A stretch of DNA of 30,231 bases from a virus (lineage: Duplodnaviria; Heunggongvirae; Uroviricota; Caudoviricetes). The stretch is taken from the IMG/VR virus record IMGVR_UViG_2695420421_000005; one strand, 5' to 3'. A model generated the notes under the pieces. The model was not told the origin of the DNA. It saw only the letters and a list, made by a program, of their open reading frames with translations, and made no database searches. The position numbers and the translations under genes were made by a program. Of the stretch, positions 1-28,834 are shown piece after piece. The number at the start of each line of letters is the position of its first letter. Position 1 is the first letter of the stretch.

Positions 1-42
1 ACATAATTCCCCATTATACGCGCGTATAATGGGGAATTATGT
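1..42. repeat. Telomere resolution site-like perfect palindrome (telO/telRL type); window begins inside a probably longer palindrome
   Basis: 42-bp perfect palindrome ACATAATTCCCCATTATACGC|GCGTATAATGGGGAATTATGT centred between 21 and 22, with central CGCGCG flanked by TATAAT arms as in N15-type telomere sites; lies ~170 bp upstream of the protelomerase gene. Confidence 0.85.
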
Positions 43-2165: not shown

Positions 2166-2330
2166 CTACCTCGCCTGCCCCTTTTCGTCCTCATCCAACT
2201 TTCTGATGGCCGTAGAATCAATACCCGCCGCCATACACACATCAGATGCAACAAACCACGGTTCGCCGTTAATCATCACTACACGAACCTGATGCTCTTC
2301 CTGAAAGGAAAAGACTGCTAACGCGCTCAT
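2166..2330 (-). pseudogene. BRO-N domain fragment (truncated antirepressor-like gene), 54 codons
   Basis: Minus-strand translation MSALAVFSFQEEHQVRVVMINGEPWFVASDVCMAAGIDSTAIRKLDEDEKGQAR* matches the conserved start of BRO-N/antirepressor proteins (F.F....VR...INGEPWFVA.DV......D) but stops after ~54 aa; GGAGG 4 nt upstream; ATGA overlap with upstream ORF. Confidence 0.45.
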
Positions 2331-2560
2331 TCAGCCTCCTTATCGTGCAGCAATTGCGACGAGAGCGACGCTGAATACCCCTGTGCTTCGTGTGTTAGCT
2401 CACACGCAATTTGAAGGAGTTTCCCTGCTTCTGAGAGATAAATCGACGCCTCACAACTGGAGATTGTCCGATGGGCTGATGATACGAGCGCATAGACCTG
2501 AGCCAGACGTTCATCCAACGATTCCAGCAGGCCAACAGTGTTCATTTTTACCTGATTCAT
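2327..2560 (-). CDS. Hypothetical small protein (77 aa), middle gene of a translationally coupled minus-strand operon
   Basis: ORF with GAGGTGG RBS 4 nt upstream of ATG; stop overlaps next start (ATGA); no family recognised. Confidence 0.45.
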   Translation of the reverse strand: MNQVKMNTVGLLESLDERLAQVYALVSSAHRTISSCEASIYLSEAGKLLQIACELTHEAQGYSASLSSQLLHDKEAE

Positions 2561-2721
2561 GCAGCCACCTCGCGCACCGGAATACGGGCAGACAATACCA
2601 GGACAAACCGGCTGGCGAACTGGCGACGAGCTTCCCGTTCAGATGACGCGATGGTGGAAAGATGATGGATGTGTGACTTTTTGTCTGTGCGAACGACTGC
2701 CGCAAATTTGAATTTGAACAT
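2557..2721 (-). CDS. Hypothetical small protein (54 aa; MFKFKFAAVVRTDKK...), possible small DNA-binding regulator
   Basis: Minus-strand ORF below the ORF-track size cutoff; GGAG 8 nt upstream of ATG; stop overlaps the start of the 77-aa ORF (ATGA). Confidence 0.35.
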   Translation of the reverse strand: MFKFKFAAVVRTDKKSHIHHLSTIASSEREARRQFASRFVLVLSARIPVREVAA

Positions 2722-2746
2722 GGTATGCACTCCGTTTAATTGGTCG

Positions 2747-3048
2747 TGCTACCACCAGAGTTCCTACGCTCTATATGGCGGTAGCCCAGACGGGGGTAGG
2801 AATACCGGTAAACGAAGAAACCGGCCAGCTAAAAGCTGCCCCATCTGAGCCACCATAAATTTGGTGTACGCAGATTTTACACACAAAAAAACACGCAGGC
2901 GCGTGTTGTGCGCTTCATTTACTCGGGTTCCTACGCCCGGCTACGGGATTTACCGTAGCGGAGTAACTTTACCGTCAAAACGACGCGCACGTCAATAATT
3001 TGCAAAGGCATTTTACCCCGTGACCAGTCACGGGGACAGGTGTTTTTA
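2747..3048 (+). ncRNA. Candidate structured noncoding RNA or regulatory leader (strand and ends uncertain)
   Basis: ~300 bp without a credible ORF; several GC-rich hairpins (ACACGC-AGGC-GCGTGT 2891-2906; 7-bp stem 2940-2946/2953-2959); GTTCCTACGC repeated at 2760-2769 and 2927-2936; possible -35 TTGAAC 2714-2719 and -10 TTTAAT 2735-2740 (15-bp spacer, suboptimal); ends at a hairpin plus T-run. Confidence 0.25.
3016..3048 (+). terminator. Hairpin CCCCGTGA-CCAG-TCACGGGG followed by a T-run; possible terminator or protein-binding palindrome
   Basis: 8-bp GC-rich stem 3016-3023/3028-3035 with TTTTT at 3042-3046; the palindrome core recurs inverted at 13753-13768. Confidence 0.4.
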
Positions 3049-3096
3049 TAGTTTGCTTAAACGAGTGTTCAGAAGTTGATCGTTAATCAAAGGCCA

Positions 3097-3384
3097 TTAC
3101 TGATTAAGAGATTGGAAATACCTAACTAACTTACCGGCATCATCACATTTTTCTTTATCTTCTTCCTTAACATAGCCGCGACAAAAGGCTGAATAAAATT
3201 TTGCATTTTCAGAAGCAAAAGCAGCCGTCGAAAGGAGCAGTTCTTTGCATGATTCTTTTGATGCAGCATCGGGATTATTTTTACATGCAAGCTCTGCTGA
3301 TGAGTCAATAACAGAAATGCTATCTTCCTGGGCATAAACCGCAGCAGAAAAGGCAAAACATAAAACAAAAATAAAACTCTTCAC
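3097..3384 (-). CDS. Small secreted protein (95 aa) with signal peptide and four cysteines
   Basis: N-terminus MKSFIFVLCFAFSAAVYA|QE has a typical signal peptide; AGGAG 5 nt upstream of a GTG start; no family recognised. Confidence 0.6.
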   Translation of the reverse strand: MKSFIFVLCFAFSAAVYAQEDSISVIDSSAELACKNNPDAASKESCKELLLSTAAFASENAKFYSAFCRGYVKEEDKEKCDDAGKLVRYFQSLNQ

Positions 3385-3411
3385 TTTATCTCCTGTAACA
3401 GTTATCGCAAC

Positions 3412-3807
3412 TCAATCAACTTTTTTAGCATCAGCCATACGCTTCAACCAGTAATCAACAATCGGTTGCTCATCCACAGAATGTTTACCAGGTATAACTC
3501 GCCAGCTGTCTGCCGAAAGGCTACCGTATCTATGCGGGAAAAGGCATTTCTTTAGCTCCTGCCATGTGCTAGGAAAACCGTCTGCCAAAGTGCCAATTAA
3601 CAGAAAAGGGACAAAAATCAGGGCTACAAACCATCTGGCAAGAAAGTGCTCAACAATAACCTCTTCACCGTTATAGTAATACGCATACGTATCCCATATA
3701 CGAATTTTCCTTACCCTAAAAATGGCCTTATGCTGAGAACGACTTAGCTTGATGCGAATGTATCCCTTATCCAAGAGGGATTGGTGTTTGTATGATTGAA
3801 CAGCCAT
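3412..3807 (-). CDS. Hypothetical membrane protein (131 aa from the internal ATG)
   Basis: Hydrophobic segment WFVALIFVPFLLIGTL; ATG at 3807 lies 2 nt after the upstream gene stop; the ORF-track start at 3819 is a GTG overlapping the upstream gene. Confidence 0.55.
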   Translation of the reverse strand: MAVQSYKHQSLLDKGYIRIKLSRSQHKAIFRVRKIRIWDTYAYYYNGEEVIVEHFLARWFVALIFVPFLLIGTLADGFPSTWQELKKCLFPHRYGSLSADSWRVIPGKHSVDEQPIVDYWLKRMADAKKVD

Positions 3808-3809
3808 TT

Positions 3810-4136
3810 TTAACCCCACTCACCATCAGCAAACAAAGCGTTATACTCTGACAATGGTAGACGGTTGCCCTCGATGTAGAGATTCAGTTCATACTTCGTC
3901 TCCGGGTTTTCCTTGTCTGCTCGTTCCCAACGCTCAGCAGCCTTACGCGCCAATAATTCCACTGCTTTCAGGTAATCCTCCGTACGGAACCAGCCAAAGA
4001 TAAGGCCACGATCTGTTACAGCCCAGGCGACCTTTTTTTCTTCCTCCTGGATAGCCTTAATGCGTCGATCGCATTCATCCCGGCAGAACTGCAGCTGACG
4101 GTAATCAAGTTTGTCCAAAAATGCAGTAGTAGACAT
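3810..4136 (-). CDS. Hypothetical protein (108 aa)
   Basis: ORF in the same orientation as repA with compact spacing; no family recognised. Confidence 0.6.
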   Translation of the reverse strand: MSTTAFLDKLDYRQLQFCRDECDRRIKAIQEEEKKVAWAVTDRGLIFGWFRTEDYLKAVELLARKAAERWERADKENPETKYELNLYIEGNRLPLSEYNALFADGEWG

Positions 4137-4140
4137 ATTT

Positions 4141-4332
4141 TTACTCCCCGTTCACCGAAAAATCACGATAGAAACGTTTCCACATACGATAAGTCTGCGC
4201 GAGTTGTTCACCACGAAACATCGCCTTCCTGGCCTTCATGTTTTCCTTGTGAGACTTTCGATCTATGAACCAAAACCATTGCTGGAACACACAAAGCAAG
4301 AGACACAAAGATAATATCCACTGATTACCCAT
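4141..4332 (-). CDS. Possible small membrane protein (63 aa) translationally coupled to repA
   Basis: ATG at 4332 overlaps the repA stop; hydrophobic ILSLCLLLCVFQQWFWFI followed by a basic tail; short, so uncertain. Confidence 0.3.
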   Translation of the reverse strand: MGNQWILSLCLLLCVFQQWFWFIDRKSHKENMKARKAMFRGEQLAQTYRMWKRFYRDFSVNGE

Positions 4333-7300
4333 AGAAAGCGCCCTGCTCTTCGTAGCTGCATGAGCTATTCCCGGTAATGTATTCTCGTAACCGCCGCAGT
4401 TCATTGCTGGACAAGTGATCCATGAACTCTGTGAGGTACAGAGATGCAAACGTCATAGCTATGCTGGTTGATGACCATGATGACATAGTGGCCAGCTCCT
4501 CACCGGAAAGCGCACTCATCGCCCAGGACTCAGGAACAGCCACCGGCAATACGGCCAAAGCCTCAGAAATTACTGAATGAGGGGCGTTTTGAACCTGCTC
4601 GTTTGTGGATCGCGTTTTATCATCCATATATATATTGAGATCCAAATCGCGATCCATTTCGATGGCTGTCTTCTCGGCTTTACGCGTTTTTAGGGTTAGG
4701 CCATCTTTCTGACGCTGAACAAGAATATCCAGCATAAATGCCGCTGATTCAGGCTCAACAAAACGCAAGGTTGGACGCTTATCGCCGTCTCTGCCGCGAC
4801 GTTTACCTGTTTTAAGGCCAAGAGAGTCGCAAATGTTTTTAAACAACGCTTCCGGCACTTTAGGCTTCCCTTTTGGCGTCATAAAACCACCAATGTGCAG
4901 AACGTTATTCAACAGGTCACGGCGTTCGGCTGTCATGAGATTATCTCGAGCGAATTTGAGACGCTCCTGAGTCGCCTCGCCGGTCATAGTCTCAGGGTTG
5001 ATACCGCAGTCGATAAAGTACTGCCGGAGAGTTGCTGATTTAAGCGCATAGAAACCGCGCGCCCCGACTTCAACAGTAGGAGTAGCTTTTACCTTGTGAT
5101 CGATTATTCCAGGGAATTTAGTTTTAAAGACATCATCAGCCTGCTCGCGAGTCATCGCGGTCACTACAAAATATTGCCACTGTCCCGCCTGACGGTATGC
5201 GTAGGTAAAATTGATGGCTGCTTCTTCCCGGTCGTAACGACGAGCTGTTACCTCATCTAAAAGCATTGTTTCATAGCGGCGAACTTTGTCTCGAGCACCA
5301 TCGAAATAGAATTTCAGTGTGCCTTCTTCAACCGGTAGTTTCAGTTCGTTTTCAATATCCCAGCGGACAAGTTTTGCCTGTTCTTCAAGCGTCAGCGCGC
5401 GTTTTTTTAGCAGTTCTTCACGCTCTGATTCTTGTGGAGTTTCTGTATTGAGGTGCAGATCCAGTGTCTGTTCCCACACAATATCCCGCGCTTCTTTACG
5501 CAGATCTTTACCGATATCATTCGCAGCATAATCGGTGCCCAGCGGCGATACCTTATAACCGTCGCTGTGCATGATGCAGATCATGTTGCTGGCGTAGTCG
5601 TTACGCGCAGTCGCTTCAATTGCGGCTGCTTTAATTTTCATCCTGGTAAAGTCGGTATTGGCCACCCCCATTGATATACGGTCGCCATCGAAAATGACAT
5701 CCGTCAGTTCACCGTTCATACCTGCGGTAGCAAGCAATGCCTGGGCGAATGCTCGTTCTATTTTTTGCGGGTCAGTTTCACGTTTTGCACGAGCTTTATC
5801 AAAGCCGATAATAAATTCTTTTGCTGTACGGTCGCGGCGTAGCATTTGCACTGCGTCGCTGGGTACAACTTCACCACAGAACATGCCGAAATGACGGTCA
5901 AAATGTTTTTGCTCAATCGACACGCCGGATGAAATAGACGGGCTATAAATCAGGCCGTCGTATTTTTTGACCATCTTTTTCGGTTGATTGGTAAATGCTT
6001 CAACTTCTGGCTCTGGTTTGTTTTTCTGGTTTACACACAGAAATTTCTTACCAGGAAAATGCATTCTCAGGGTGGCTGTCACATCTTCTGCAAAGGTGGA
6101 GCTGTCGGTGGCCAACATGATTTTTTCGCCATCCGATACAGCTTTCACCACCTCGGTCATGATGCGATCTTTTTCTGTATAAAAAACCCGGATTGGCTCA
6201 CCTGTTTCGCGGTTGCGAACATCAACAGGTAATTCAATTACGTGGATCTGCAGCCATGCCGGTAAACCTAGTTCTTCACGGCGTTTCATAGCCAGTTCAG
6301 CCAGGTCAACCAGCAGATCGTTCGCATCAGCATCCACCATGATTGGGTGTTGTTCCGTTCTGGCCAGCGCGTCAATTAGCGTATTGAATACAGCCACCGG
6401 GTTTTCCATAGCCCGACCGGAAAGAACGGCACGTAGCCCTTGTGTGGCCTCGTCAAAGCCAAAATAGTCGTGCTGGCGCATCAACGGTTGCCAGCAGTTT
6501 TTAACAATCGAGTTTATGCAGATGGTCAGTTTACTGGCGTATGGAGCCATTTCCTGATAGCCAGGGTCCTGATAGTGCAGGATATCGGCTTTTACACCTT
6601 TTCCTTCAGTCATCATTTCCCACAGGCCACCAATAAGGGAAACACGGTGAGCTACAGAGATACCGCGTTCTGAGCTATGCATTAACGGTCGTAACAATCC
6701 AGTAGATTTGCCGGAACCCATACCAGCACGAACGATGACGATCCCCTGTAGTGATTGCACGTACTTCAGGACGTCATCGGTCATTACCGAAGTTTCAAAA
6801 CGCTTATAGGTGATATGTTGAGGGCGTTTATTGGGATCAGTTATGCGTTCGCTGAAAGAGCGCGGAGCCTGGGCAATACGGCACTTTTTATTCAGGCGAC
6901 GGGCAATGTGGTCTTTTACCGTAGCGCGATAGATATTTTCCAGCCCCATTTCACGCAGAACGATGCAGAACATGTTAAACAAATCTGACGGACTGTTAGG
7001 AACCGGACAGGTTAGCATGCCAATATCCACCGCTCTCAGCAGCTCTTTGGCAAAAGTACGACGGTTATCCCGCTTAATTGTCTTCAGGCGGTTGAGCGTC
7101 AGAGATAGCAAATCAGTGCCGGTTTTCAGGCGGTTTGCTGTTGCAAATAGTTGACGTGCTGTTTCACGAAGTCCACGTAGTTTGTGCAGGTCGTTGAAGT
7201 CACTGCACTCCATTTGCGGATCGTCTTCAAAAGTTGGATAGACGCAGCGGACATCGTTGAATTTCGATAAGATTTCATAGCCAGTCCGCAGGCCGGTATT

Positions 7301-8320
7301 CCCTTTTCCTTCTGTGGCTGATTTCCGGTCATTATCCAGTGCGCAGGTGATTTTTGCCGCCGGGTACATGTTTACCAGTTGTTCCACAACATGAACCATG
7401 TTGTTAGCGGATACAGCGACAACCACAGCGTCAAAGCGTTTATCTTTTTTCGTGGCAAGCCAGATGGATGCACCAGTAGCAAAACCTTCTGTAACAGCGA
7501 TGTTTTGCGCCCCTTTCAGCTCACCGATAACAAAGCAGGCACCGACGAAATCGCCGCTGGTTACTGCGCTGGTCTGGTATTTCCCACCTTGTTTGTCGAT
7601 TCGCTGCCAACCCACAATACGACCATCGTAACGACCGTCCAGGTGAGCCAGAGGGATAGCCATATATGTGGTTGGCCCCCGGTTCCATTTCGCACTGTCG
7701 TGACTGGTCACGCGACGCACATCACATGAACTAAAAACGTCACGAATACCTTTTTTAATCGCATATGGCCATGAGCCGTCTTCTGCAGGAGCATGTTCCC
7801 ACGCGCTGTGGAATGCCAGCCATCCCAGCAAACGTTCATGGTCCATTTGGTTGTTTTTCAGGTCATTAATTCGTTTTTGTTCTTCACGGCGACGACGTGC
7901 TTCGGCCTGACGTTTTATTCTTGCCCGTTCTTCTTCCGGTTGTGCGACCACGGTCGCATTATTCCGTTGTTGCTCACGGCGATATTCAGAAAACAGGAAG
8001 GAGAAACCGCTCCATGAGCCAGCATCGCTGCCTTTATGGACGAAGTTAATGAACGGGTAATCAATCCCTTTGCTGTGTTCCAGCCGGGAGTAAATTTCTA
8101 CGCGTCCTTTGAGGCTCTTTTCGAGAGCTTCTGGAGATGTTTTATTGTATGAAGAGTAACGCTCAACACCCCCGCGAGGGTTGAGTTGGATGTTGTCGGA
8201 ACAGGCAGACCAGTTGATACCAGCCATCTGTGCCAGCTCGGTTAGTTCATCCCGTGCTGCTTCAATTAGCGAGAACGGATCGCTGCCAAAGCGATCCGCA
8301 TAGAAATCGTTTAATGTCAT
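4325..8320 (-). CDS. repA: Replication protein RepA (primase-helicase), 1331 aa
   Basis: Size and position match N15 RepA (~1320 aa); Walker A motif GMGSGKST in the helicase region; sits between the telN side and the cB immunity region as in N15. Confidence 0.93.
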   Translation of the reverse strand: MTLNDFYADRFGSDPFSLIEAARDELTELAQMAGINWSACSDNIQLNPRGGVERYSSYNKTSPEALEKSLKGRVEIYSRLEHSKGIDYPFINFVHKGSDAGSWSGFSFLFSEYRREQQRNNATVVAQPEEERARIKRQAEARRRREEQKRINDLKNNQMDHERLLGWLAFHSAWEHAPAEDGSWPYAIKKGIRDVFSSCDVRRVTSHDSAKWNRGPTTYMAIPLAHLDGRYDGRIVGWQRIDKQGGKYQTSAVTSGDFVGACFVIGELKGAQNIAVTEGFATGASIWLATKKDKRFDAVVVAVSANNMVHVVEQLVNMYPAAKITCALDNDRKSATEGKGNTGLRTGYEILSKFNDVRCVYPTFEDDPQMECSDFNDLHKLRGLRETARQLFATANRLKTGTDLLSLTLNRLKTIKRDNRRTFAKELLRAVDIGMLTCPVPNSPSDLFNMFCIVLREMGLENIYRATVKDHIARRLNKKCRIAQAPRSFSERITDPNKRPQHITYKRFETSVMTDDVLKYVQSLQGIVIVRAGMGSGKSTGLLRPLMHSSERGISVAHRVSLIGGLWEMMTEGKGVKADILHYQDPGYQEMAPYASKLTICINSIVKNCWQPLMRQHDYFGFDEATQGLRAVLSGRAMENPVAVFNTLIDALARTEQHPIMVDADANDLLVDLAELAMKRREELGLPAWLQIHVIELPVDVRNRETGEPIRVFYTEKDRIMTEVVKAVSDGEKIMLATDSSTFAEDVTATLRMHFPGKKFLCVNQKNKPEPEVEAFTNQPKKMVKKYDGLIYSPSISSGVSIEQKHFDRHFGMFCGEVVPSDAVQMLRRDRTAKEFIIGFDKARAKRETDPQKIERAFAQALLATAGMNGELTDVIFDGDRISMGVANTDFTRMKIKAAAIEATARNDYASNMICIMHSDGYKVSPLGTDYAANDIGKDLRKEARDIVWEQTLDLHLNTETPQESEREELLKKRALTLEEQAKLVRWDIENELKLPVEEGTLKFYFDGARDKVRRYETMLLDEVTARRYDREEAAINFTYAYRQAGQWQYFVVTAMTREQADDVFKTKFPGIIDHKVKATPTVEVGARGFYALKSATLRQYFIDCGINPETMTGEATQERLKFARDNLMTAERRDLLNNVLHIGGFMTPKGKPKVPEALFKNICDSLGLKTGKRRGRDGDKRPTLRFVEPESAAFMLDILVQRQKDGLTLKTRKAEKTAIEMDRDLDLNIYMDDKTRSTNEQVQNAPHSVISEALAVLPVAVPESWAMSALSGEELATMSSWSSTSIAMTFASLYLTEFMDHLSSNELRRLREYITGNSSCSYEEQGAFYG
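7943..7958. repeat. sopC-like centromere-type inverted repeat TGCGACC-AC-GGTCGCA (copy 1, inside repA coding sequence)
   Basis: 7-bp inverted arms with 2-bp spacer, same architecture as the F sopC core TGGGACC-AC-GGTCCCA; five copies in this window. Confidence 0.5.
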
Positions 8321-8356
8321 TTTTTAGCCATTCCATACGAATTATGTTTTTTCGGG

Positions 8357-8385
8357 TTGAAAAAATCCGCAGGAGCAGCCACAAT
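8357..8385 (+). promoter_or_regulatory. Candidate promoter for a short plus-strand transcript antisense to the repA leader
   Basis: -35 TTGAAA (8357-8362), 17-bp spacer, -10 CACAAT (8380-8385); would give an ~80-nt RNA containing hairpin GACGG-AAT-CCGTC (8402-8414) and ending at the 8444-8471 terminator. Confidence 0.3.
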
Positions 8386-8443
8386 AAACGCATCTTGAAT
8401 TGACGGAATCCGTCGCGTTACTGTGGCTGCTTCCTGAAAAGGA

Positions 8444-8471
8444 CCCGAGTTTGCCGACTCGGGTTTTTTTT
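8444..8471. terminator. Intrinsic terminator in the repA upstream/leader region, potentially bidirectional
   Basis: Stem CCCGAGT/ACTCGGG with 6-nt loop followed by T8 on the plus strand; on the minus strand the same hairpin is followed by TCCTTTTC and lies downstream of cB and upstream of repA. Confidence 0.65.
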
Positions 8472-8565
8472 CGTCTTTTTTCTGCTGCTGTAACCTGAGT
8501 CAACCCACAGAACATATGCTCTGCATTAAACCAGATTTACAGCAAACAATAAACCCCGTATTAAG

Positions 8566-9162
8566 TCATCTACCCTCAACCATGAATGATTTGATCGTTC
8601 CGACTATTTGGTGAACAAATTCAAGATCGCTTTTCCTGAAGATGGCGCGTTGTGAATTTGTTCCGTCCAGATAGTAATTTTCATCATCAAAACGGGCCAG
8701 GCGCTGGATGGTGATATTTCCTGCAGTATCACGAACCAGAACATCCTCGCCGGGGACCAGTTCCAGCGCAGAATCGACCAGGAGAAAATCGCCAGGCTGA
8801 TAGTTTCCCTGCGCCAGATTGCTGATAGTTAACGCATAAACAGTATTGCGCTGGCTGATGAATGGCAGGAATCGCTCAGTATTTGGAACCTGTCCTGGCT
8901 TCCACTCTTCATCAGGTCCACTTTCAGTTGTGCCAATAACAGGAATGCGATCAGGGTCATATTCTGTCCCATACAGCACCCAATGCACTGGCTTGCGTAA
9001 GCATTTAGCCAGGGCAATACCTATCTCCAGTGACGGCATTACGTCGCCACGTTCTAAGTTTTGGACGCCTGCAATAGAGATATCGACAGCCTCAGCAACT
9101 TCTCGCAACGTCAGCTTCATCTCTAAACGGCGTGCTTTCAGTCGTTCGCCTCGTGTTTTCAT
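8566..9162 (-). CDS. cB: Prophage repressor CB (CI-like: N-terminal HTH plus C-terminal S24/LexA-like domain), 198 aa
   Basis: N-terminal HTH (LTLREVAEAVDISIAGVQNLERG) and C-terminal peptidase S24-like fold region; divergent from cro across an operator-containing spacer. Confidence 0.9.
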   Translation of the reverse strand: MKTRGERLKARRLEMKLTLREVAEAVDISIAGVQNLERGDVMPSLEIGIALAKCLRKPVHWVLYGTEYDPDRIPVIGTTESGPDEEWKPGQVPNTERFLPFISQRNTVYALTISNLAQGNYQPGDFLLVDSALELVPGEDVLVRDTAGNITIQRLARFDDENYYLDGTNSQRAIFRKSDLEFVHQIVGTIKSFMVEGR

Positions 9163-9184
9163 AGCTTAATCATAAATGATCTTC

Positions 9185-9226
9185 TTATAGCTGGCTATAA
9201 AATTTATTTATTATAGCTGGCTTTAA
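9185..9226. promoter_or_regulatory. Operator region between cB and cro: two 16-bp palindromic sites TTATAGCTGGCTATAA (9185-9200) and TTATAGCTGGCTTTAA (9211-9226)
   Basis: Two near-identical inverted-repeat sites 26 bp apart in the divergent intergenic region; TATAAT at 9242-9247 just upstream of the cro ATG. Confidence 0.6.
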
Positions 9227-9253
9227 TTGTTGTTTATTGTTTATAATAACAAC

Positions 9254-9475
9254 ATGAAACCAGAAGAACTTATTCGCCACTTTGGCAGTGTAGAAAAAGC
9301 AGCGGCAGGGGTAGGTGTAACACCCGGAGCTGTTTACCAATGGTTAACCGCTGGAGAGATTCCTTCATTGCGGCAAAGCGATATTGAAGTTCGTACTGCT
9401 TATAAGCTGAAGAGTGACTTTACAACTCGGCGGGTAAAGCAGTCGATTAAGGAGAGTCGTAAGCGTGGAGCTTGA
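9254..9475 (+). CDS. cro: Cro-like HTH regulator (73 aa from the ATG at 9254)
   Basis: Small basic HTH protein (HFGSVEKAAAGVGVTPGAVYQWL) divergent from the repressor gene; the ORF-track start at 9227 is TTG, the internal ATG is more plausible. Confidence 0.8.
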   Translation: MKPEELIRHFGSVEKAAAGVGVTPGAVYQWLTAGEIPSLRQSDIEVRTAYKLKSDFTTRRVKQSIKESRKRGA

Positions 9476-10175
9476 GTATATACGCAGCTGCGTCTCTACG
9501 GCATTGGCTGATGTTCATTATCGCCAGCGTGGCATTCTGGAGGTCCAGCTTGAGCAGATGCGTCTCGGTAGATCAGGACGGTTTAACAATAAACCAGTCC
9601 GGTCAATCAGTGTGGGGGATGATAACTCATACGAAGTGTCCGTTCCTGCTGAGCCGGTTAGATTCCACCAGGGGAAAACATTTAAACAATCATCAATGTT
9701 GCTCACTGATATTGATTTTCAGAGCGCCAGCTGGCGCAGGGCTATTGGTCAGTTGAATAACGAGGAATCAGCCTGGCTTTATTATTGCTACGGATGCAAG
9801 CCTGATTACAACAATGATGTGATTGTTTGTCAGTGGTTATGGCTTGATTTTCTGGTTGCTCATTCGGGGGGCGGCTTTAAAAAAATGAAGGCCTCCACGA
9901 AAAAAGCCATGCGGAAATTGATTTATTACGCGGCACAGCAGGTTAAATCAGAACTTACGTGTGCTGAGGCAGTTGATGAGAGAGAACAGGACAGGCATCT
10001 GAGTCTTCTACTGAATATATCTATTGATAGCTGGAGACAAGATTATAAAGAACGCTGGCTTTTAATTAAGTCGCGATGTCTGAGCTTAAATCGAACTGCA
10101 TTATTAAATGCGGCGGAGAAGCGCAGTGAAATCATCAAACGCCATCGGGCAGGAAGTGCCATTCTGCCTTTGTAA
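9465..10175 (+). CDS. Hypothetical protein (236 aa), positional analogue of the Q antiterminator in a cB-cro-Q arrangement
   Basis: GTG start overlapping the cro end with AAGGAGAG upstream; product assignment is by position only, no motif confirmed. Confidence 0.65.
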   Translation: MELEYIRSCVSTALADVHYRQRGILEVQLEQMRLGRSGRFNNKPVRSISVGDDNSYEVSVPAEPVRFHQGKTFKQSSMLLTDIDFQSASWRRAIGQLNNEESAWLYYCYGCKPDYNNDVIVCQWLWLDFLVAHSGGGFKKMKASTKKAMRKLIYYAAQQVKSELTCAEAVDEREQDRHLSLLLNISIDSWRQDYKERWLLIKSRCLSLNRTALLNAAEKRSEIIKRHRAGSAILPL

Positions 10176-10182
10176 ACAAGTT

Positions 10183-10428
10183 ATGTTCAGGAAACCGTCG
10201 AAGCCAGAATTAAGGTATTCGGGGGTAAGAAATGAATATGTTATCTGGTGTCCAACTTGTGGTTACAGGACACGACCAGATAGTAATAAGCAGTCTGTAA
10301 TTGCCGATTGGTATTTATCAAATCAGCCAGGTAATAAGCATATAGAAAATCTTTGGATTAAGCGTTACTTGGAAATCAGAGAGGGTGCGACCGTGGTCGC
10401 ACAAGAAAATGAAAATAACGCCATTTAA
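10183..10428 (+). CDS. Small zinc-ribbon-like protein, possibly Lar-family restriction alleviation protein (81 aa)
   Basis: CPTCG plus VIADWYLS resembles the Lar-family CPFCG...AI.AWN pattern, but only one CxxC is present; start at the internal ATG after the upstream stop. Confidence 0.4.
   Translation: MFRKPSKPELRYSGVRNEYVIWCPTCGYRTRPDSNKQSVIADWYLSNQPGNKHIENLWIKRYLEIREGATVVAQENENNAI
10386..10401. repeat. sopC-like inverted repeat TGCGACC-GT-GGTCGCA (copy 2, within the 3' end of the Lar-like ORF)
   Basis: Same 7-2-7 inverted repeat as the other copies. Confidence 0.5.
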
Positions 10429-10612
10429 GCAGGGGCCGATGACGCATGATGAAGCAGAGCGTCTTTCAGATAATTATCGGCGGCGTGGTAAGAAAGTTCT
10501 GGTTGTTCGTTCTGATTTTTTAGGTGATGGATATTGCGTTTATGTTCATTTACCTGAATCAGAAAGAACGCCAAAACCATCCAGAACATATCAACAGAAA
10601 ATTTGGGTATAG
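10409..10612 (+). CDS. Hypothetical protein (67 aa)
   Basis: ORF with internal ATG; no clear RBS; no family recognised. Confidence 0.4.
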   Translation: MKITPFKQGPMTHDEAERLSDNYRRRGKKVLVVRSDFLGDGYCVYVHLPESERTPKPSRTYQQKIWV

Positions 10613-10635
10613 ATAAACGTTGAGGAGAATTATTC

Positions 10636-11235
10636 GTGACTAATCAGATTATTTACGACAGGAAACGGTCTGATGTAATGATTGACCTTGAAACAATGGG
10701 TACTAACACATGTGCTCCAATTGTTTCTATCGGGGCAGTGTTTTTTTCTCCAGAAAATGAGGAATTAGGTCCTACTTTTTATGTGCCAGTGAATCTCAGA
10801 AGCTCGATGTTGAATGGTGGTGTCGCCGATGGTGATACCATTTTATGGTGGTTGAAACAGAGCAAGGAAGCCAGAGCCGCAATTTGTACTAATGATGCCC
10901 TTGATATTAAGGATGCACTTTTTGAATTATCACACTTTATTACTTGCCATGCATGTAATTTAAAAAAATTGAAAGTATGGGGAAATGGAGCAACGTTCGA
11001 TAATGTAATTTTACGCGGTGCTTATGAGCGCGTTGGCTTAGCCTGTCCGTGGGAATATTTTAATGATCAGGATGTTCGAACAATCGTTAATCTTGGTCAG
11101 TTTATTGGTTTTAATCCTAAAAAAGATATGCCATTTGATGGCGAACGACACAATGCCCTAGCTGATGCTATTCATCAGGCTAAATATGTATCCGCAATTT
11201 TCTCCCGTCTTGTAAAAGGTCAAGGAGAATCGTAA
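10636..11235 (+). CDS. DnaQ-like 3'-5' exonuclease (DEDDh family), 199 aa
   Basis: Exo I MIDLETMG, Exo II WGNGATFDNVIL, Exo III HNALADA motifs; GAGGAG 8 nt upstream of the GTG start. Confidence 0.8.
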   Translation: MTNQIIYDRKRSDVMIDLETMGTNTCAPIVSIGAVFFSPENEELGPTFYVPVNLRSSMLNGGVADGDTILWWLKQSKEARAAICTNDALDIKDALFELSHFITCHACNLKKLKVWGNGATFDNVILRGAYERVGLACPWEYFNDQDVRTIVNLGQFIGFNPKKDMPFDGERHNALADAIHQAKYVSAIFSRLVKGQGES

Positions 11236-11654
11236 TGGCAAAGGCTTTTACACCAGAACAGAGGGAAGAACTGAATAAACAAATTGTGGAACTCGTGCGC
11301 CTGAATGGACGAGGAACGGTTAGGCAACTTGCGGATGAAACTGGTATTAGCCGATGTGCTGTTAGTCGTTTATCAAGAGAGCTTGCTGCCAGTGGTGATT
11401 TGTATATCTCTGGCTCCGGGATATTTCTGTCTGCACAAGCACGCAAGGACTGGCAAAACGCCCGTAAAAAACTATCAAGAGTAAAGCCGAAGACATCGGT
11501 AGTGGTTGATCCAGACCTTATCTGGTCATTACCTGACGGAGAAATACGTCGTTACGACAGGCGCTTGAACATGATTTGTCACGATTGCCGGAAAAGTGAA
11601 GTTATGCAGCGTGTGCTGGCTTTTTATCAGGGAAATTTTCAGGAGGTGGCGTAG
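11235..11654 (+). CDS. Putative HTH DNA-binding protein (139 aa)
   Basis: Probable winged-helix segment VRQLADETGISRCAVSRLSRELAASGDL; start overlaps the upstream stop. Confidence 0.7.
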   Translation: MAKAFTPEQREELNKQIVELVRLNGRGTVRQLADETGISRCAVSRLSRELAASGDLYISGSGIFLSAQARKDWQNARKKLSRVKPKTSVVVDPDLIWSLPDGEIRRYDRRLNMICHDCRKSEVMQRVLAFYQGNFQEVA

Positions 11655-11944
11655 TGAATATCGACACCACGATAACGATCGATACGGCCCTAAATACCGG
11701 TCTGGCACTTCTCGGTTGGCTTTACATCATGTCCCGTGCATGGCGATGGCTTGGTTCCATTTTTCTAAAACAGTGGAAAAAACGGCGCAAACAGGAGAGA
11801 CGCCAGAAAGCGTTAGAGGCGTTCTATGACGCATTTGAACTTAGCCGCATTGAGCCTGGAACAACAGCCAGGATAGCGACAAAAGGTGACCTGATGATAG
11901 TGATGTTCCGACAGGAGAGAGCAGAGAAAGGAGAATCAGCATGA
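11654..11944 (+). CDS. Small membrane protein (96 aa)
   Basis: Hydrophobic helix ALNTGLALLGWLYIM followed by a basic KKRRKQERRQK stretch; GTG start overlapping the upstream stop. Confidence 0.55.
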   Translation: MNIDTTITIDTALNTGLALLGWLYIMSRAWRWLGSIFLKQWKKRRKQERRQKALEAFYDAFELSRIEPGTTARIATKGDLMIVMFRQERAEKGESA

Positions 11945-12675
11945 AATTTTCCAAATTTTCTGAGTTGGTGAATCGCATTTTGTCCAACAACCATAGCCAT
12001 CATCGCGATATGGATGTAACGATCGTTGTTCATTCGCCTGGTCGCATCGGTTCAACACCATCAGTTGAGGTTCAGTCAATTCAGGCGGGTTTTGATTGGG
12101 ATTCCGGGAAAGTGCTTATTTTCCCAGCACAGCCACTGACCACGCTAACACCAGAACAGATTACTGATATTACTGATAGTGTGCGCAAAGGTCAGTCTTG
12201 GCACGCATATCAGGAATATAAAAAGCATAAAGAGCAGTTGGAAAAATTGTCGATTGAACTGGATGCTGCAAAACAGCGCGTAGCAGAACTGGAAGCCAAA
12301 CCTGTAAGCCAAACTTACAAGTTAACTTTTGAGCAATGGCTGGAACAGCAGCATGACAAAATTGATGTTGATTGTGGATGTGTAAGTACTGAAATGTTTA
12401 TGCACTGGATAAGGGTCGCGTATGAGGCTGGCAACTATCCGGTAACTCCGGATGGTTGGATAAGCTGTAGTGAGCGAATGCCTGAAAAGGGCCAGAACGT
12501 GCTTATTTCGGTGAATTTCGATAGCTCTCTGGTTGAACCGCTAATATGCTCCGCACGCTATACCGGAAGCACCTTTCGGCGCGGAGATGCAACGATTAAG
12601 CCGGGTAATGCTATTGAGCAAGCAACTCACTGGATGCCGCTACCAGAACCTCCGCAGGAGTCGAAGAGTGAATAA
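11941..12675 (+). CDS. DUF551-like phage protein (244 aa)
   Basis: C-terminal region (PDGWISCSERMPEKGQNVLI...WMPLPEPP) resembles DUF551; ATGA overlap with the upstream gene. Confidence 0.75.
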   Translation: MKFSKFSELVNRILSNNHSHHRDMDVTIVVHSPGRIGSTPSVEVQSIQAGFDWDSGKVLIFPAQPLTTLTPEQITDITDSVRKGQSWHAYQEYKKHKEQLEKLSIELDAAKQRVAELEAKPVSQTYKLTFEQWLEQQHDKIDVDCGCVSTEMFMHWIRVAYEAGNYPVTPDGWISCSERMPEKGQNVLISVNFDSSLVEPLICSARYTGSTFRRGDATIKPGNAIEQATHWMPLPEPPQESKSE

Positions 12676-12889
12676 AGCAGAGTTATTTCAGAAAATATCG
12701 GCTCTCGCGACTGAATGCCACGCTATAGCATCTGAGCTTGATGTTGGCGATGAACGAACCGAGATGTTCGAAATATACAGTGTGCTGCGCAATCTCTGTC
12801 GGCGTGGCTACGCCACTCAAGTAGGGCGAATGACTAACCCACTACTCTCATCCTGTGATGAGGATGACTCGGATGAGGATGACGAATGA
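12668..12889 (+). CDS. Hypothetical acidic-tailed protein (73 aa from GTG)
   Basis: GTG start with GGAG ~9 nt upstream; C-terminus DEDDSDEDDE; overlaps flanking genes in operon-like fashion. Confidence 0.45.
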   Translation: MNKAELFQKISALATECHAIASELDVGDERTEMFEIYSVLRNLCRRGYATQVGRMTNPLLSSCDEDDSDEDDE

Positions 12890-13416
12890 TGCATAAAGCA
12901 GTAGCCGGTGAGTTTCAGAAGGAAGTCGATAATACTACCGTTCTATTGGACGATATTTTAAGCATTCTCGCGCTGCTTGAGGCTGGCGATTGGTCAGAAC
13001 ATTGCACTAAAACAGAGCTAGGCGGTCGGCTTGAAAGAGAGATTACACGACTTATTGGTGATGCGCAGGAAGCCACTGTCACTGGCTATGAGTTAATCGC
13101 TGAAGCCTGGCGTTTGATGGATGGACAAGACCCTAAAACCAGCGATTGGCATAGCAAGGCGTCGAAGTATTTAAATTCCAATATTGTAGAAAAAGTTGAT
13201 GATGACCGTATTGAGGCCGTTAAGGCTGTGTTGCGTAGGTTGGCTGGCAACTCTCCGGTAACTCCGGATGGTCATGTTCAGTTTTCTGTTTCACTTCCTG
13301 CAGCGTTTGGTGGAGATAAATATTTTATTGATGGTGTATTTCAACCTTTGAGATATGAGCGTGACTGTGAAAAAGCGGTTGTGGCCGCTGGCGGTGTAGT
13401 TAATTGGGTTAAGTAA
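12886..13416 (+). CDS. Hypothetical protein (176 aa) sharing the AGN(Y/S)PVTPDG segment with the upstream DUF551 gene
   Basis: ATGA-coupled ORF; ~32-nt near-identical segment at 13245-13276 versus 12428-12459. Confidence 0.7.
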   Translation: MMHKAVAGEFQKEVDNTTVLLDDILSILALLEAGDWSEHCTKTELGGRLEREITRLIGDAQEATVTGYELIAEAWRLMDGQDPKTSDWHSKASKYLNSNIVEKVDDDRIEAVKAVLRRLAGNSPVTPDGHVQFSVSLPAAFGGDKYFIDGVFQPLRYERDCEKAVVAAGGVVNWVK

Positions 13417-13431
13417 TTTTCAGGAGGATTT

Positions 13432-13758
13432 ATGGCGCTGACACCGGCAGAACGGCAAAGGAGACGCAGGGAACGGTTGAAGAAGGAAGGCACATCAAGA
13501 CGGGACTGGATTTTGGAGCCTGACGAGTTACGTATGTTGGGGGAAATTTGTGTATTGCGTAGACCAGGGCGAGTTCCATATTCGGAGAACGAAGTCATTG
13601 GTTTGCTGATCAGGAAAAACTATAAGGAGCTGCAGAAGCAGCTATCTACTACTTGCCCGCGATGTGGTCAAAAAATGCCTGTTTCAGAATGCATTTTTGA
13701 TGGCGAAGGGTCATGCCACCTTACAACCACGAGGCTGAAACTTGCGCTCAAAGCGTGA
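13432..13758 (+). CDS. Hypothetical protein (108 aa), arginine-rich N-terminus and Cys-containing C-terminus
   Basis: CAGGAGG RBS 6 nt upstream of ATG; MALTPAERQRRRRERLKKEG basic region. Confidence 0.7.
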   Translation: MALTPAERQRRRRERLKKEGTSRRDWILEPDELRMLGEICVLRRPGRVPYSENEVIGLLIRKNYKELQKQLSTTCPRCGQKMPVSECIFDGEGSCHLTTTRLKLALKA

Positions 13759-13768
13759 CTGGTCACGG
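13753..13768. repeat. Palindrome GCGTGACTGGTCACGG, inverted copy of the 3018-3033 palindrome
   Basis: 15 of 16 positions are the reverse complement of the site at 3018-3033; overlaps the stop codon of the upstream gene and precedes the RBS of the next. Confidence 0.5.
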
Positions 13769-13776
13769 AGGGATAA

Positions 13777-14019
13777 ATGGATAAAAAGGCATTGCTTTTT
13801 GAAATGATACGAAAACGGAGCGAAAAGAGCTTTTCTGATGGTGGTGATGGGTTTGTTTTCGCTTCTATGCTTGCTTTTGATGTTGGGTTAAATAGCAGAA
13901 TTGTTAAAAGGATGCTTGATTCTGCTGTCCGTGATGGGCTTTTGGAAGTGGTTGGGCGAGGAGTAGGAAGGGAACATAAGTATCGGACTACAAAGATATT
14001 TAACCAGTTAATCTATTGA
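13777..14019 (+). CDS. Hypothetical protein (80 aa)
   Basis: GGAGGG RBS upstream of ATG; no family recognised. Confidence 0.65.
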   Translation: MDKKALLFEMIRKRSEKSFSDGGDGFVFASMLAFDVGLNSRIVKRMLDSAVRDGLLEVVGRGVGREHKYRTTKIFNQLIY

Positions 14020-14045: not shown

Positions 14046-14065
14046 CCCTGTAATTTTATACAGTA
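14046..14065. promoter_or_regulatory. LexA (SOS) box CCCTGTAATTTTATACAGTA
   Basis: CTGT-N8-ACAG with an AT-rich spacer and ACAGTA end, matching the E. coli LexA consensus; overlaps a possible -10 (TACAGT) 17 bp after TTGAGT; preceded by GGCTATAAAATTT also found at the cB/cro operator. Confidence 0.6.
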
Positions 14066-14087: not shown

Positions 14088-14306
14088 ATGGTATTAGATT
14101 CAATGACTGAAGCACCTGTATCAACTCTTGAAGAACTCGGATCAAACCTAAAAGACATCGACGCCGTTTTGGATCTGGTTAGCGTTGCTCTGGCTTCTCC
14201 AGAAGCCAGCTTGCATCTTGGCGAGATTTCACGACTTGTTAGTATGTCGCGGGAGATTGCTCAGAATTGCCAACAAGTTATTGCTGTTGAGTGTTTACAT
14301 CATTGA
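14088..14306 (+). CDS. Small acidic protein (72 aa; alternative start at 14103), candidate SOS-regulated antirepressor
   Basis: First ORF downstream of the LexA box; product assignment is inference by analogy with the N15 LexA-controlled antirepressor. Confidence 0.5.
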   Translation: MVLDSMTEAPVSTLEELGSNLKDIDAVLDLVSVALASPEASLHLGEISRLVSMSREIAQNCQQVIAVECLHH

Positions 14307-18592: not shown

Positions 18593-18608
18593 TGCGACCG
18601 TGGTCGCA
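18593..18608. repeat. sopC-like inverted repeat TGCGACC-GT-GGTCGCA (copy 4)
   Basis: Same motif, immediately left of direct repeat A. Confidence 0.5.
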
Positions 18609-27104: not shown

Positions 27105-28834
27105 GCCGGAAATCTTACCCCAACGTAAATGCTGCAAATCAGTATGCCCGGGATGTCGTGCGCGGAAAGATTGTTGCCTGCCAGTTTGTGATTCAGGCCT
27201 GCCAGCGCCATCTTGATGACCTGATGGCGGAAAAAAGTAAGTCGTTTCGTTACCGCTTCGACAAGGACCTGGCTGAACGGGCCGCGAAATTTATTCAGCT
27301 GTTGCCGCACACCAAGGGGGAGTGGGCATTCAAACGGATGCCCATCACGCTGGAGCCGTGGCAGCTATTTGTGATCTGCTGTGCGTTTGGCTGGGTCAAT
27401 AAAGGCACCCGGTTGCGCCGCTTCCGGGAGGTGTACACCGAAATCCCCCGTAAGAACGGCAAATCAGCAATCTCTGCCGGTGTTGCCCTGTATTGTTTTG
27501 CCTGTGATAACGAGTTTGGCGCGGAAGTGTATTCCGGTGCCACGACAGAGAAACAGGCGTGGGAAGTCTTTCGCCCGGCGCGACTGATGTGTAAACGCAC
27601 ACCCATGCTGACGGAAGCGTTCGGGATTGAGGTTAACGCCTCAAACATGAACCGTCCGGAGGATGGCGCGCGGTTTGAACCGCTGATCGGCAACCCAGGT
27701 GATGGTTCATCACCCCACTGTGCCGTGGTTGATGAATATCACGAGCATGCCACCGATGCGCTTTATACCACAATGCTTACCGGGATGGGGGCGCGACGTC
27801 AGCCACTGATGTGGGCCATCACCACCGCCGGGTACAACATTGAGGGGCCGTGCTACGACAAGCGGCGGGAAGTCATCGAGATGCTCAACGGCTCGGTGCC
27901 TAACGATGAACTGTTCGGGATCATCTATACCGTTGATGAAGGTGACGACTGGACCGGCCCGCAGGTGCTGGAAAAAGCCAATCCAAATATTGGCGTGTCG
28001 GTTTATCGCGAATTTTTGTTAAGTCAGCAGCAGCGTGCGAAAAATAACGCCCGTCTGGCAAACGTCTTTAAAACAAAACACCTCAATATCTGGGTGTCGG
28101 CGCGTTCGGCGTATTTCAACTTGGTGAGCTGGCAGAGCTGCGAGGATAAATCACTGACCCTTGAGCAGTTCGAGGGGCAGCCGTGCATTCTGGCCTTTGA
28201 CCTGGCGCGTAAGCTGGATATGAACAGCATGGCGCGACTTTATACCCGCGAGATTGACGGTAAAACGCATTACTACAGTGTGGCCCCGCGTTTCTGGGTA
28301 CCGTATGACACGGTGTACAGCGTCGAGAAAAATGAAGATCGACGGACAGCCGAACGCTTTCAGAAATGGGTGGAAATGGGCGTTCTGACCGTTACCGATG
28401 GTGCGGAGGTGGATTATCGCTACATCCTCGAGGAGGCCAAAGCGGCGAACAAAATCAGCCCGGTCAGTGAGTCACCCATCGACCCCTTCGGGGCGACCGG
28501 GTTGTCACATGACCTTGCTGATGAAGACCTGAATCCCGTCACTATCGTCCAGAACTTCACCAATATGTCCGATCCGATGAAAGAGCTGGAAGCAGCGATT
28601 GAATCGGGACGTTTTCATCATGACGGCAATCCCATCATGACCTGGTGTATCGGCAACGTGGTCGGCAAAAACATGCCGGGTAACGATGATGTGGTGAAAC
28701 CCGTCAAAGAGCAGGCGGAAAACAAAATCGATGGTGCAGTTGCGCTGATTATGGCGGTTGGCAGAGCCATGCTGTACGAGAAAGAAGACACGCTGTCTGA
28801 CCACATTGAGTCCTACGGGATCCGCTCGCTTTAA
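27101..28834 (+). CDS. Terminase large subunit (HK97-like), 577 aa
   Basis: Size, position and ATGA coupling to terS; followed by a portal gene. Confidence 0.85.

Follow-up and report, generated by a model that had tools for sequence, protein, structure and literature searches.

Three conserved copies of a GTGAC-NN-GTCAC palindrome in an N15-like linear plasmid prophage, and a candidate binding partner in the gp46 protein family

Introduction

Bacteriophage N15 is a model linear plasmid-prophage whose cis-acting sites are thought to have been catalogued: tos/telRL, the operators of CB and Cro, four SopB centromeres, a LexA box and the ori. The stretch of viral DNA examined here (IMG/VR record IMGVR_UViG_2695420421_000005; 30,231 nucleotides, hereafter the window) is, judged by its sequence, an N15-like linear plasmid prophage. 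A first-pass annotation of the window had pointed to a short palindrome at two gene boundaries that differs from the sopC-type partition sites. Is this palindrome a further site family, and if so, which protein would recognise it? We report that the palindrome constitutes a real, conserved family of cis-acting sites with three copies in the window. We propose with moderate confidence that the sites are recognised by the protein family to which N15 gp46 belongs.

Results

A 14-bp palindrome is present in three exact copies

The perfect palindrome common to all copies is the 14-bp core CGTGAC-NN-GTCACG, with 6-bp arms and a 2-bp centre. It occurs three times in the window, at 3019-3032 (site 1), 7699-7712 (site 2) and 13754-13767 (site 3). 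The first-pass annotation had reported sites 1 and 3, and the two sequences that it compared (3018-3033, CCGTGACCAGTCACGG, and 13753-13768, GCGTGACTGGTCACGG) do agree as reverse complements at 15 of 16 positions. Its placement of both sites at gene boundaries is likewise correct: site 1 lies between the stop codon of the open reading frame (ORF) 3097-3384 and the immA promoter, and site 3 lies on the stop codon of ORF 13432-13758. The count of two has to be raised, since a third exact copy, CGTGACTGGTCACG, lies within repA. The form of the palindrome has to be shortened, because arms of 9 bp are found only at site 1 (3016-3035). These longer arms are not conserved; in N15 the arms of site 1 measure 6 bp only.

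The annotation had also left room for a motif that recurs at chance frequency. Against the three exact copies in the window, none was found in 100 dinucleotide-preserving shuffles, and with up to two mismatches allowed there were 6 matches in the window compared with a shuffle mean of 0.93. The half-site CGTGAC alone was not enriched beyond the palindromes (17 seen, 11 expected in the window), and palindrome variants with a centre of 0, 1, 3 or 4 bp were absent from the window. Among phages the arms are invariant and the central dinucleotide is free (CA/TG, GG/CC, AG or AT). Invariant arms around a variable centre are the pattern expected of a dyad-symmetric protein site.

The palindrome is not annotated in the GenBank records of N15 and phiKO2. 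A literature search with the motif strings returned only unrelated matches to mouse and human primers, an earlier mention may exist, and a literature search for N15 gp46 and gp47 returned nothing relevant. Several known elements were compared with the motif and set aside. The ori repeats annotated in N15 (U63085) are unrelated in sequence, and the only LexA box match in the window, at 14048-14063, is separate from the motif. The site of SlmA has the consensus GTGAGTACTCAC, with a conserved A-G...C-T core; the motif carries C and G at positions 5 and 8, where this consensus has G and C.

The three positions are fixed in the N15 clade, and the motif is absent from the PY54 clade

Exactly three copies at the same three positions were found in N15, phiKO2, PhiR46_1, KpLi5, 48ST307, Enterobacter phage MStein and a Pseudocitrobacter contig. 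This count holds within the sequence read, which comprised whole genomes for three of N15, phiKO2, KpLi5, 48ST307, MStein and PhiR46_1. There were no further copies in the complete N15 and PhiR46_1 genomes, and all three lie in the early/maintenance arm. About 20 IMG/VR metagenomic loci agree with this arrangement, some of them truncated or with one flank mismatch. The YDC107_1 record (L003) shows extra copies of the same sites, owing to a duplication within the record: the telN-immA-repA-cB segment is present again in inverted orientation, with frameshifts in the copies, so that the motif seems to occur twice as often. This arrangement resembles either a head-to-head dimer left unresolved or an artefact of the assembly.

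The motif is missing from PY54 and from its relatives in Xenorhabdus, Erwinia and enterobacterium LSJC7. The gp46 gene is divided in the same way, being present in all motif-bearing N15-clade genomes and missing from these motif-free relatives. A presence/absence table of early genes showed that gp46 and antC are limited to the motif-bearing clade and that gp47, gp51 and a toxin-antitoxin pair also occur in PY54-clade genomes.

A different palindrome was found at the corresponding places in the PY54 clade. PY54 and its Xenorhabdus and LSJC7 relatives carry a sop-type element, TGGGACC-NN-GGTCCCA, within the short, variable stretch of RepA where the N15 clade has the motif (it starts at column 212 of the alignment, compared with 208 for the motif). 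This second repA sop-type site lies about 256-265 bp from the first, compared with 244 bp between the motif and the sopC-type site in N15-like phages. It was located at 30984 in PY54 (L005), where one half is imperfect (TGTGACC), at 10631 in L041 and at 10625 in L043. At the place that site 1 takes in the N15 clade, immediately past the final gene of the repA operon, PY54 has a further sop-type site. The occupation of equivalent places by two palindrome families suggests an analogous role as a bound nucleoprotein site. With its half-sites 2 bp closer together, however, the motif cannot be interconverted with the sop-type sequence.

Site 2 lies in the longest invariant run of repA

Codons of repA were aligned among nine phages whose nucleotide identity to the window was 70-79%. 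L040 (a 'Limoniibacter' contig) was left out of the analysis, as its repA is degraded and the segment with site 2 is deleted. In this alignment 18.5% of third codon positions were invariant. The longest invariant run in the 4-kb gene was 19 nt (CGCGTGACCAGTCACGACA) and holds site 2, and the second-longest, 15 nt, was the sopC-type partition site, 244 bp from site 2. Since so few third positions are invariant, the presence of site 2 in the longest run indicates selection on the DNA or RNA sequence itself. By this measure the conservation of site 2 equals or exceeds that of the sopC-type partition site in the same gene.

The palindrome accompanies gp46-family genes in unrelated phages

An exhaustive profile search collected 103 representative clusters of the gp46 family. 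The genomic contexts of distant members were scanned for the 10-base core GTGAC-NN-GTCAC, which is expected about 0.01-0.02 times per locus and which gave 3 matches in 860 kb of control loci. The core was present near members with 32-41% identity from four further lineages of phages or prophages, and in two of these lineages it lies at or just after the gene's own stop codon. In the first (L087/L089/L097/L098, about 34% identity to gp46), TTGTGACAGGTCACAA extends across the gene's own TGA stop, as in the window. The second (L088/L106) has two copies, one right after the stop and one 100 bp on. L086 also has two, of which one supplies the TGA stop of another small gene and one spans a start codon. 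Xenorhabdus-type lambdoid prophages (L090, L091, L102 and L103, about 41% identity) have a single copy at the same place in a ydaT-like gene in four diverged loci.

When the family hidden Markov model (HMM) was run over the collected loci, 49 had both gene and motif, 7 the gene only, 5 the motif only (2 of these being truncated N15-like loci) and 43 neither. A conservative count by lineage placed the motif in 5 of 9, for which the binomial probability is near 2e-4 at a background of about 0.07 per 20 kb. Because the motif moves across unrelated phages together with a gp46-family gene, the palindrome is most likely the binding site of that protein. The clusters P0074 and P0116 had no relatives in the viral collection.

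L097 and L106 share a further arrangement. The family gene is the last early gene in both, and a promoter-like site (TTGACG or TTGCAA, then N17) follows 66-67 bp past the motif. Downstream are a strong intrinsic terminator and then a called endolysin (L106) or small uncalled genes and terminase (L097); no Q gene was called in either locus. By analogy, this layout resembles lambda Q-PR'-tR'. A conserved block, AAAAAGC.GG.TTTGCAGGT ... TTAATTACAC, follows the motif in both (L097 10345-10560, L106 10356-10650).

In a Pseudoalteromonas phage (L093, 10340-10375) the TGA stop of the family gene lies inside CGTGACC-N20-GGTCACG, which is followed by TTTTTT and forms a terminator-like hairpin with the motif's half-sites as its arms.

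Predicted features of the gp46-family protein

The family corresponds to PHROG 536, which carries the label 'transcriptional regulator'. Its alignment shows an N-terminal AERKxxQRxR helix, a middle part made of a strand and then two helices, and a C-x2-C-G-x2-LP...C...C cluster. The N-terminus of gp46 (TPAERQRRRRERLKK) is arginine-rich. A shallow alignment gave an AF2 model too poor to use (pLDDT 51), and a 28-sequence alignment was used instead. The resulting model (pLDDT 81) places an extended segment at 20-29 between helices at 5-19 and 30-42, with further helices at 52-71 and 96-104 and a Cys cluster. Its best fold matches in the PDB were TTHA0139 and ParD, a ribbon-helix-helix (RHH) antitoxin; both matches are weak (E 1.4-8). 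Profile matches to the zinc ribbons of YbiI and TraR over the Cys region and C-terminal half are also weak (E 0.013-0.03). The gp46 N-terminus is strongly basic, compared with the acidic-tipped helix that DksA/TraR proteins insert into the secondary channel of RNA polymerase, and the fourth Cys is placed differently from their C-x2-C ... C-x2-C ribbon. The model and these matches weakly suggest that the arginine-rich N-terminal helix is followed by an RHH-like core and a C-terminal zinc ribbon.

Genetic context and folding of sites 1 and 3

Site 1 is within an intergenic block that is conserved among N15-clade phages. Along the minus strand the repA operon ends first; next come the motif, a spacer of 23 bp up to the -35 element of the immA promoter (TTGACG-N18-TAAAGT), the isrK-type RNA with its terminator, the C4 RNA and icd-antA-antB. 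Rfam also recognises the isrK and C4 pair in N15, at 28301-28489, where it corresponds to the immA leader. As position 1 of the isrK model falls at 2959, the transcript would start at about 2959, which places the centre of site 1 at about -66. With Rfam, no isrK/C4-type RNA was found beside the motif in the non-N15 lineages.

Two side observations concern this intergenic region. In the site-1 alignment, phages differ by compensatory changes in a hairpin of the isrK-type region. Next to site 1, N15 (28590-28612), phiKO2, KpLi5 and MStein share a conserved GATC-rich double palindrome, ACTGATCAGAACCTGATCAGT, and its counterpart at 3060-3085 of the window has diverged (GAGTGTTCAGAAGTTGATCGT).

On the plus strand site 1 can form an extended hairpin of -20 kcal/mol (z = -3.4); at sites 2 and 3 the stability of the predicted hairpins did not exceed that of shuffles (z = -0.4 and -0.05). 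There is no U-tract after site 1 on the transcribed strand; the minus-strand tail is UAAAAUGCC. An explanation by terminators or RNA structure fails for the family as a whole, because sites 2 and 3 fold unremarkably and site 1 lacks the U-tract. Rho-independent termination was also rejected directly, as a terminator scan called none of the three sites.

At site 3, the GGAGGG ribosome-binding site of the gp47 homologue follows directly, and the ATG of that gene (13777) comes 9 nt past the end of the site. The antC-like ORF, an SOS-controlled antirepressor, begins about 300 bp further on.

Organization of the window

The coordinates of the sites and neighbouring features are given in Table 1. 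Escherichia phage PhiR46_1 is 97% identical to the window across 96% of the first 25 kb. Rightward of cB the order is cro, Q, the early-right genes and then the homologues of N15 gp46 and gp47; to the right of the antC-like gene are a toxin-antitoxin pair and the late region with a lambda-like head module. The LexA box ahead of the antC-like ORF fits the SOS-controlled antirepression known for N15.

Table 1. Coordinates of the three palindromes and of neighbouring features in the window
Feature	Coordinates	Strand	Remarks
Telomere palindrome	1-42		Left end of the window
Protelomerase	213-2120
immA antirepressor locus remnants	2166-2730	-	icd-antA-antB fragments
C4-type antisense RNA	2774-2860	-	Rfam; equivalent of N15 CA-RNA, 5' of the icd-antA-antB fragments
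isrK-type small RNA or leader	2886-2959	-	Rfam; ends in terminator 2907-2890
Putative Pa promoter of the immA antirepressor locus	2966-2995	-	TTGACG-N18-TAAAGT, kept across N15-clade phages
Site 1	3016-3035		CCCCGTGAC-CA-GTCACGGGG; core 3019-3032; intergenic, after the last repA-operon gene
Four small genes	3097-4332	-
repA	4325-8320	-	1331 aa; hosts site 2 and one sopC-type site
Site 2	7699-7712		CGTGACTGGTCACG; inside repA, coding-strand nt 609-622, codons R-V-T-S-H-D
sopC-type partition site in repA	7943-7958		TGCGACCACGGTCGCA; comparison element
cB	8566-9162	-
N15 gp46 homologue	13432-13758	+	108 aa; proposed cognate binder
Site 3	13754-13767		CGTGACTGGTCACG; includes the TGA stop (13756-13758) of the gp46-family gene
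N15 gp47 homologue	13777-14019	+	80 aa; directly 3' of site 3; weaker candidate binder
LexA box	14048-14063		CTGTAATTTTATACAG; perfect, 25 bp 5' of the antC-like ORF; only CTGT-N8-ACAG match in the window
antC-like ORF	14088-14306

The sopC-type elements, TGCGACC-NN-GGTCGCA, are presumably the N15 SopB centromere sites, and the phiKO2 record labels the orthologous elements 'putative plasmid partitioning site'. The window has five perfect copies (7943, 10386, 15583, 18593 and 18813), compared with four in N15. Those at 18593 and 18813 are spaced by 220 bp.

Two further observations concern other parts of the window. Positions 1-42 form a perfect 42-bp palindrome (ACATAATTCCCCATTATACGCGCGTATAATGGGGAATTATGT), a telomere resolution site inside which the window begins; the PhiR46_1 record annotates telL on the corresponding terminal bases. 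Between an Ea22-like gene and the gp46 homologue (about 11940-13420) the window has some 830 bases more than PhiR46_1 and different small early genes. This segment is a mosaic replacement just 5' of site 3.

Discussion

The sites described here are non-random, fixed in position, under selection at the level of DNA and inherited together with the gp46 family in unrelated phages. From the sequence comparisons we hold, with moderate confidence, that a symmetric dimer of the gp46-family protein encoded at 13432-13758 recognises the three (C)GTGAC-NN-GTCAC(G) copies in double-stranded DNA. Physical binding, the symmetry of the dimer and the direction of regulation are what we infer. The suggestion in the first-pass annotation of a second DNA-binding protein, with sites distinct from sopC, has thereby gained support that is indirect but strong, from positional conservation, DNA-level selection in repA and co-occurrence. 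The binders that it had nominated (CB, SopB and small helix-turn-helix (HTH) proteins) are replaced, as the evidence points to the gp46 family instead.

In the proposed mechanism, the gp46-family protein would be made from the early-right operon, and its dimer would bind duplex DNA carrying CGTGACCAGTCACG. The sites lie within or between transcription units, at points that may matter for lysis or lysogeny and for plasmid maintenance. Site 1 would be bound between the repA operon and the immA locus, about 66 bp 5' of the probable start of the isrK/C4 leader; site 2 would be bound 0.6 kb into repA, beside a SopB centromere site; and site 3 at the 3' end of the gp46 gene itself, ahead of gp47 and of antC, which is predicted to be under LexA control. 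The bound protein may modulate transcription, as an activator or repressor of Pa, a roadblock or a loader for antitermination, and it could also bridge the sites. The succession of motif, promoter, leader, terminator and operon that site 1 has in common with L097 and L106 suggests a regulator of initiation or of read-through. The early-right operon of N15 is silenced by the CB repressor. The product of a gp46 gene in this operon may for this reason be scarce or absent in the plasmid-prophage state.

Several findings weigh against binding by the gp46 family. If gp46 is scarce in the prophage, the strong conservation of the site in repA has no obvious role in maintenance. The phyletic argument from the N15 and PY54 clades represents a single split, and the presence and absence of antC are identical to those of gp46. 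The exact motif is missing in 4 of the 9 sampled family lineages (P0111, P0159/P0161, P0113 and P0118, the last having CGTGACC-N20-GGTCACG over its stop codon), which means either that specificity has drifted or that the link is not universal. The family has no significant match in Pfam or NCBIfam, and hence no Pfam match to a DNA-binding domain, and the matches behind its fold assignment are weak (Foldseek E > 1; HMM E 0.01-0.6).

The same observations can be extended to a more specific and unlikely proposal. The gp46 family might form a new class of small phage transcription-elongation regulators, recruited by GTGAC-NN-GTCAC and engaging RNA polymerase through a TraR-like zinc ribbon. In phages without Q it might act as the late-gene switch; in N15-like phages it might carry transcription past the terminator of the isrK/C4 leader into the antirepressor genes, and it might gate repA and antC. 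If this were true, it would link replication, the neighbourhood of the partition sites and anti-immunity in one circuit.

An unlikely alternative is that the sites are bound by another phage protein (the gp47 homologue, the gp51 homologue, RepA or another small early protein) and that the link to gp46 is one of mere neighbourhood. Site 3, just ahead of the gp47 start codon, is in a classical position for autoregulation; gp47 appears winged-helix-like by eye, and the gp51 homologue is annotated as a winged-HTH protein in phiKO2. But homologues of gp47 and gp51 are present in the palindrome-free PY54, LSJC7 and Erwinia relatives, where no palindrome lies 5' of the gp47 homologue. The gp47 family was seen only in telomere phages of the N15 and PY54 types, yet the motif accompanies gp46-family genes in phages that show no gp47. 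In a common N15-like lineage of E. coli, moreover, the HTH-like middle of gp47 is deleted in frame, and sites 2 and 3 (those within the loci read) are retained. On these three grounds, its family range, its homologues in the palindrome-free PY54 clade and the lineage with the internal deletion, gp47 was dropped as the first-choice binder. In the deletion lineage (L034-L038, 6001-6156) the gp47 homologue is 51 aa long and site 3 reads TGTGAC..GTCACG. No significant Pfam or NCBIfam family was found for gp47.

Binding of the gp46-family protein to RNA, the main alternative for this protein, is about equally unlikely. The arginine-rich N-terminus would recognise a CGUGA-CNNG-UCACG hairpin, as lambda N does boxB, and the zinc ribbon would engage RNA polymerase. 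The outcome would be nut-like antitermination, at the isrK/Tca terminator past site 1 and at the terminators that precede the late genes in L097 and L106. All of the sites are in transcribed regions, and a palindrome yields the same stem from either strand. The gp46 N-terminus resembles by eye the arginine-rich RNA-binding motifs of lambda and P22 N, and the C-terminal half has the weak TraR/YbiI match. Site 1 and the L097/L106 sites are each followed by a strong intrinsic terminator within about 120-190 nt and then by an operon. Three properties of the sites speak for duplex DNA read by a dimer rather than for an RNA hairpin. The two-fold symmetry extends to C5 and G8, which are unable to pair across a 2-nt loop; the middle of the loop varies freely; and the stem is invariant and does not covary across proteins that are only 32% identical. 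The unremarkable folding of sites 2 and 3 is also unfavourable. A lambda-type nut/boxB site was rejected, since boxB has a 5-bp stem and a conserved purine-rich pentaloop, whereas the loop here would have 4 nt (C-N-N-G) with a variable middle.

We consider it very unlikely that the sites are matS-like elements through which host MatP, or another host factor, tethers or compacts the linear plasmid. The half-sites equal those of matS, for which the E. coli consensus is GTGACRNYGTCAC (PMC6907758), and three dispersed copies would suit bridging. The known hosts are all enterobacteria, which encode MatP. Against this, the spacing gives a 12-bp rather than a 13-bp site, PY54-clade phages of MatP-bearing hosts are without the motif, and the motif covaries with a phage gene and not with the host.

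The first-pass annotation had also offered a diverged centromere, and there is at most a slight chance that the motif is a second class of centromere-like partition site used by SopB and the Sop system. The PY54-clade sop-type palindromes at the repA segment (site 2) and, in PY54, at the position of site 1 would agree with this, as would the resemblance of the CGTGACC half-site to TGGGACC/TGCGACC at 5 of 7 positions. But the 7+2+7 form is perfectly preserved in the true sopC-type sites of the window, of N15, of phiKO2 and of others, and when the two families are aligned on GAC(C), the motif has its half-sites 2 bp nearer to each other, which would deny a SopB dimer the same mode of docking. 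Moreover, the motif tracks the gp46 family and not SopB, and it is found with gp46 in integrated prophages without called partition genes in the loci read.

That the copies are chance matches or purely structural hairpins or terminators with no dedicated binder is extremely unlikely in our judgement: the extended hairpin of site 1 between two operons would be in favour, but the shuffles contained no copies, this extension is not conserved, the transcribed strand has no U-tract, sites 2 and 3 fold like shuffles and site 2 sits in the longest invariant run of repA.

The palindrome adds a further conserved site family to N15-like phages, beyond the cis-acting sites already catalogued. Prophage induction is decided by two antirepressor loci, immA and gp47-antC, and each of them has one of the three copies immediately 5' of it. 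Recognition by gp46 would also give a testable function, sequence-specific nucleic-acid binding to GTGAC-NN-GTCAC, to about 100 clusters labelled 'hypothetical' or 'transcriptional regulator' in telomere phages, lambdoid prophages and metagenomic phages. As linear vectors derived from N15 (pJAZZ-type) keep repA and with it site 2, the element may matter for vector behaviour.

Comparison with known site and protein systems

MatP contains a ribbon-helix-helix domain, and its site matS is closely similar to the motif. The half-sites GTGAC/GTCAC are identical in all copies, and both sites have a loosely specified centre and few dispersed copies. They differ in that matS has 13 bp with three central bases (R-N-Y), whereas the phage motif has 12 bp and a 2-bp centre in every copy. 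The 13-bp form GTGAC-N3-GTCAC was not found in the window, N15, PhiR46_1, YDC107_1 or MStein. An RHH is weakly predicted for gp46 too. The proteins differ in that gp46 is phage-encoded, is 108 aa long, carries a predicted zinc ribbon and has no detectable similarity to MatP. As a MatP homologue it was rejected, since the BLOSUM local alignment scored below the shuffle mean and the hhalign probability was under 1% with both shallow and deep profiles. The motif thus works like a matS-type palindrome but is not matS.

The sopC-type sites share with the motif that they are short perfect palindromes scattered in the early region, with one of each in repA, and that they form islands of nucleotide invariance. 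They are present in four to five copies rather than three; the motif is not found near late promoters and is linked to gp46 rather than to sopAB. The operators of RHH regulators (Arc, Mnt, CopG and ParD or other antitoxins) are similar in having short dyad sites, a small dimeric protein and a gene beside one site. Unlike these regulators, gp46 is predicted to possess two additional parts, an arginine-rich helix and a zinc ribbon like that of TraR; its RHH fold is weakly supported, and its proposed sites include one at the 3' end of its own gene instead of in the promoter and another inside an unrelated essential gene.

The lambdoid Q protein with its DNA element is paralleled in L097 and L106/L088 by the order of last early gene, motif, promoter-like site and leader with terminator, and site 1 of the window has this layout too. 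No sequence similarity to Q families was detected, however, and in N15-like phages and Xenorhabdus prophages a bona fide Q gene is present besides the gp46-family gene. The Q element lies within its promoter, whereas the motif is about 23-67 bp 5' of the -35 element. A small regulator with a palindromic site is a familiar kind of system; what is unusual in this one is the combination of matS-like half-sites, a candidate partner with a predicted zinc ribbon, a site on the partner gene's own stop codon and a site embedded in repA.

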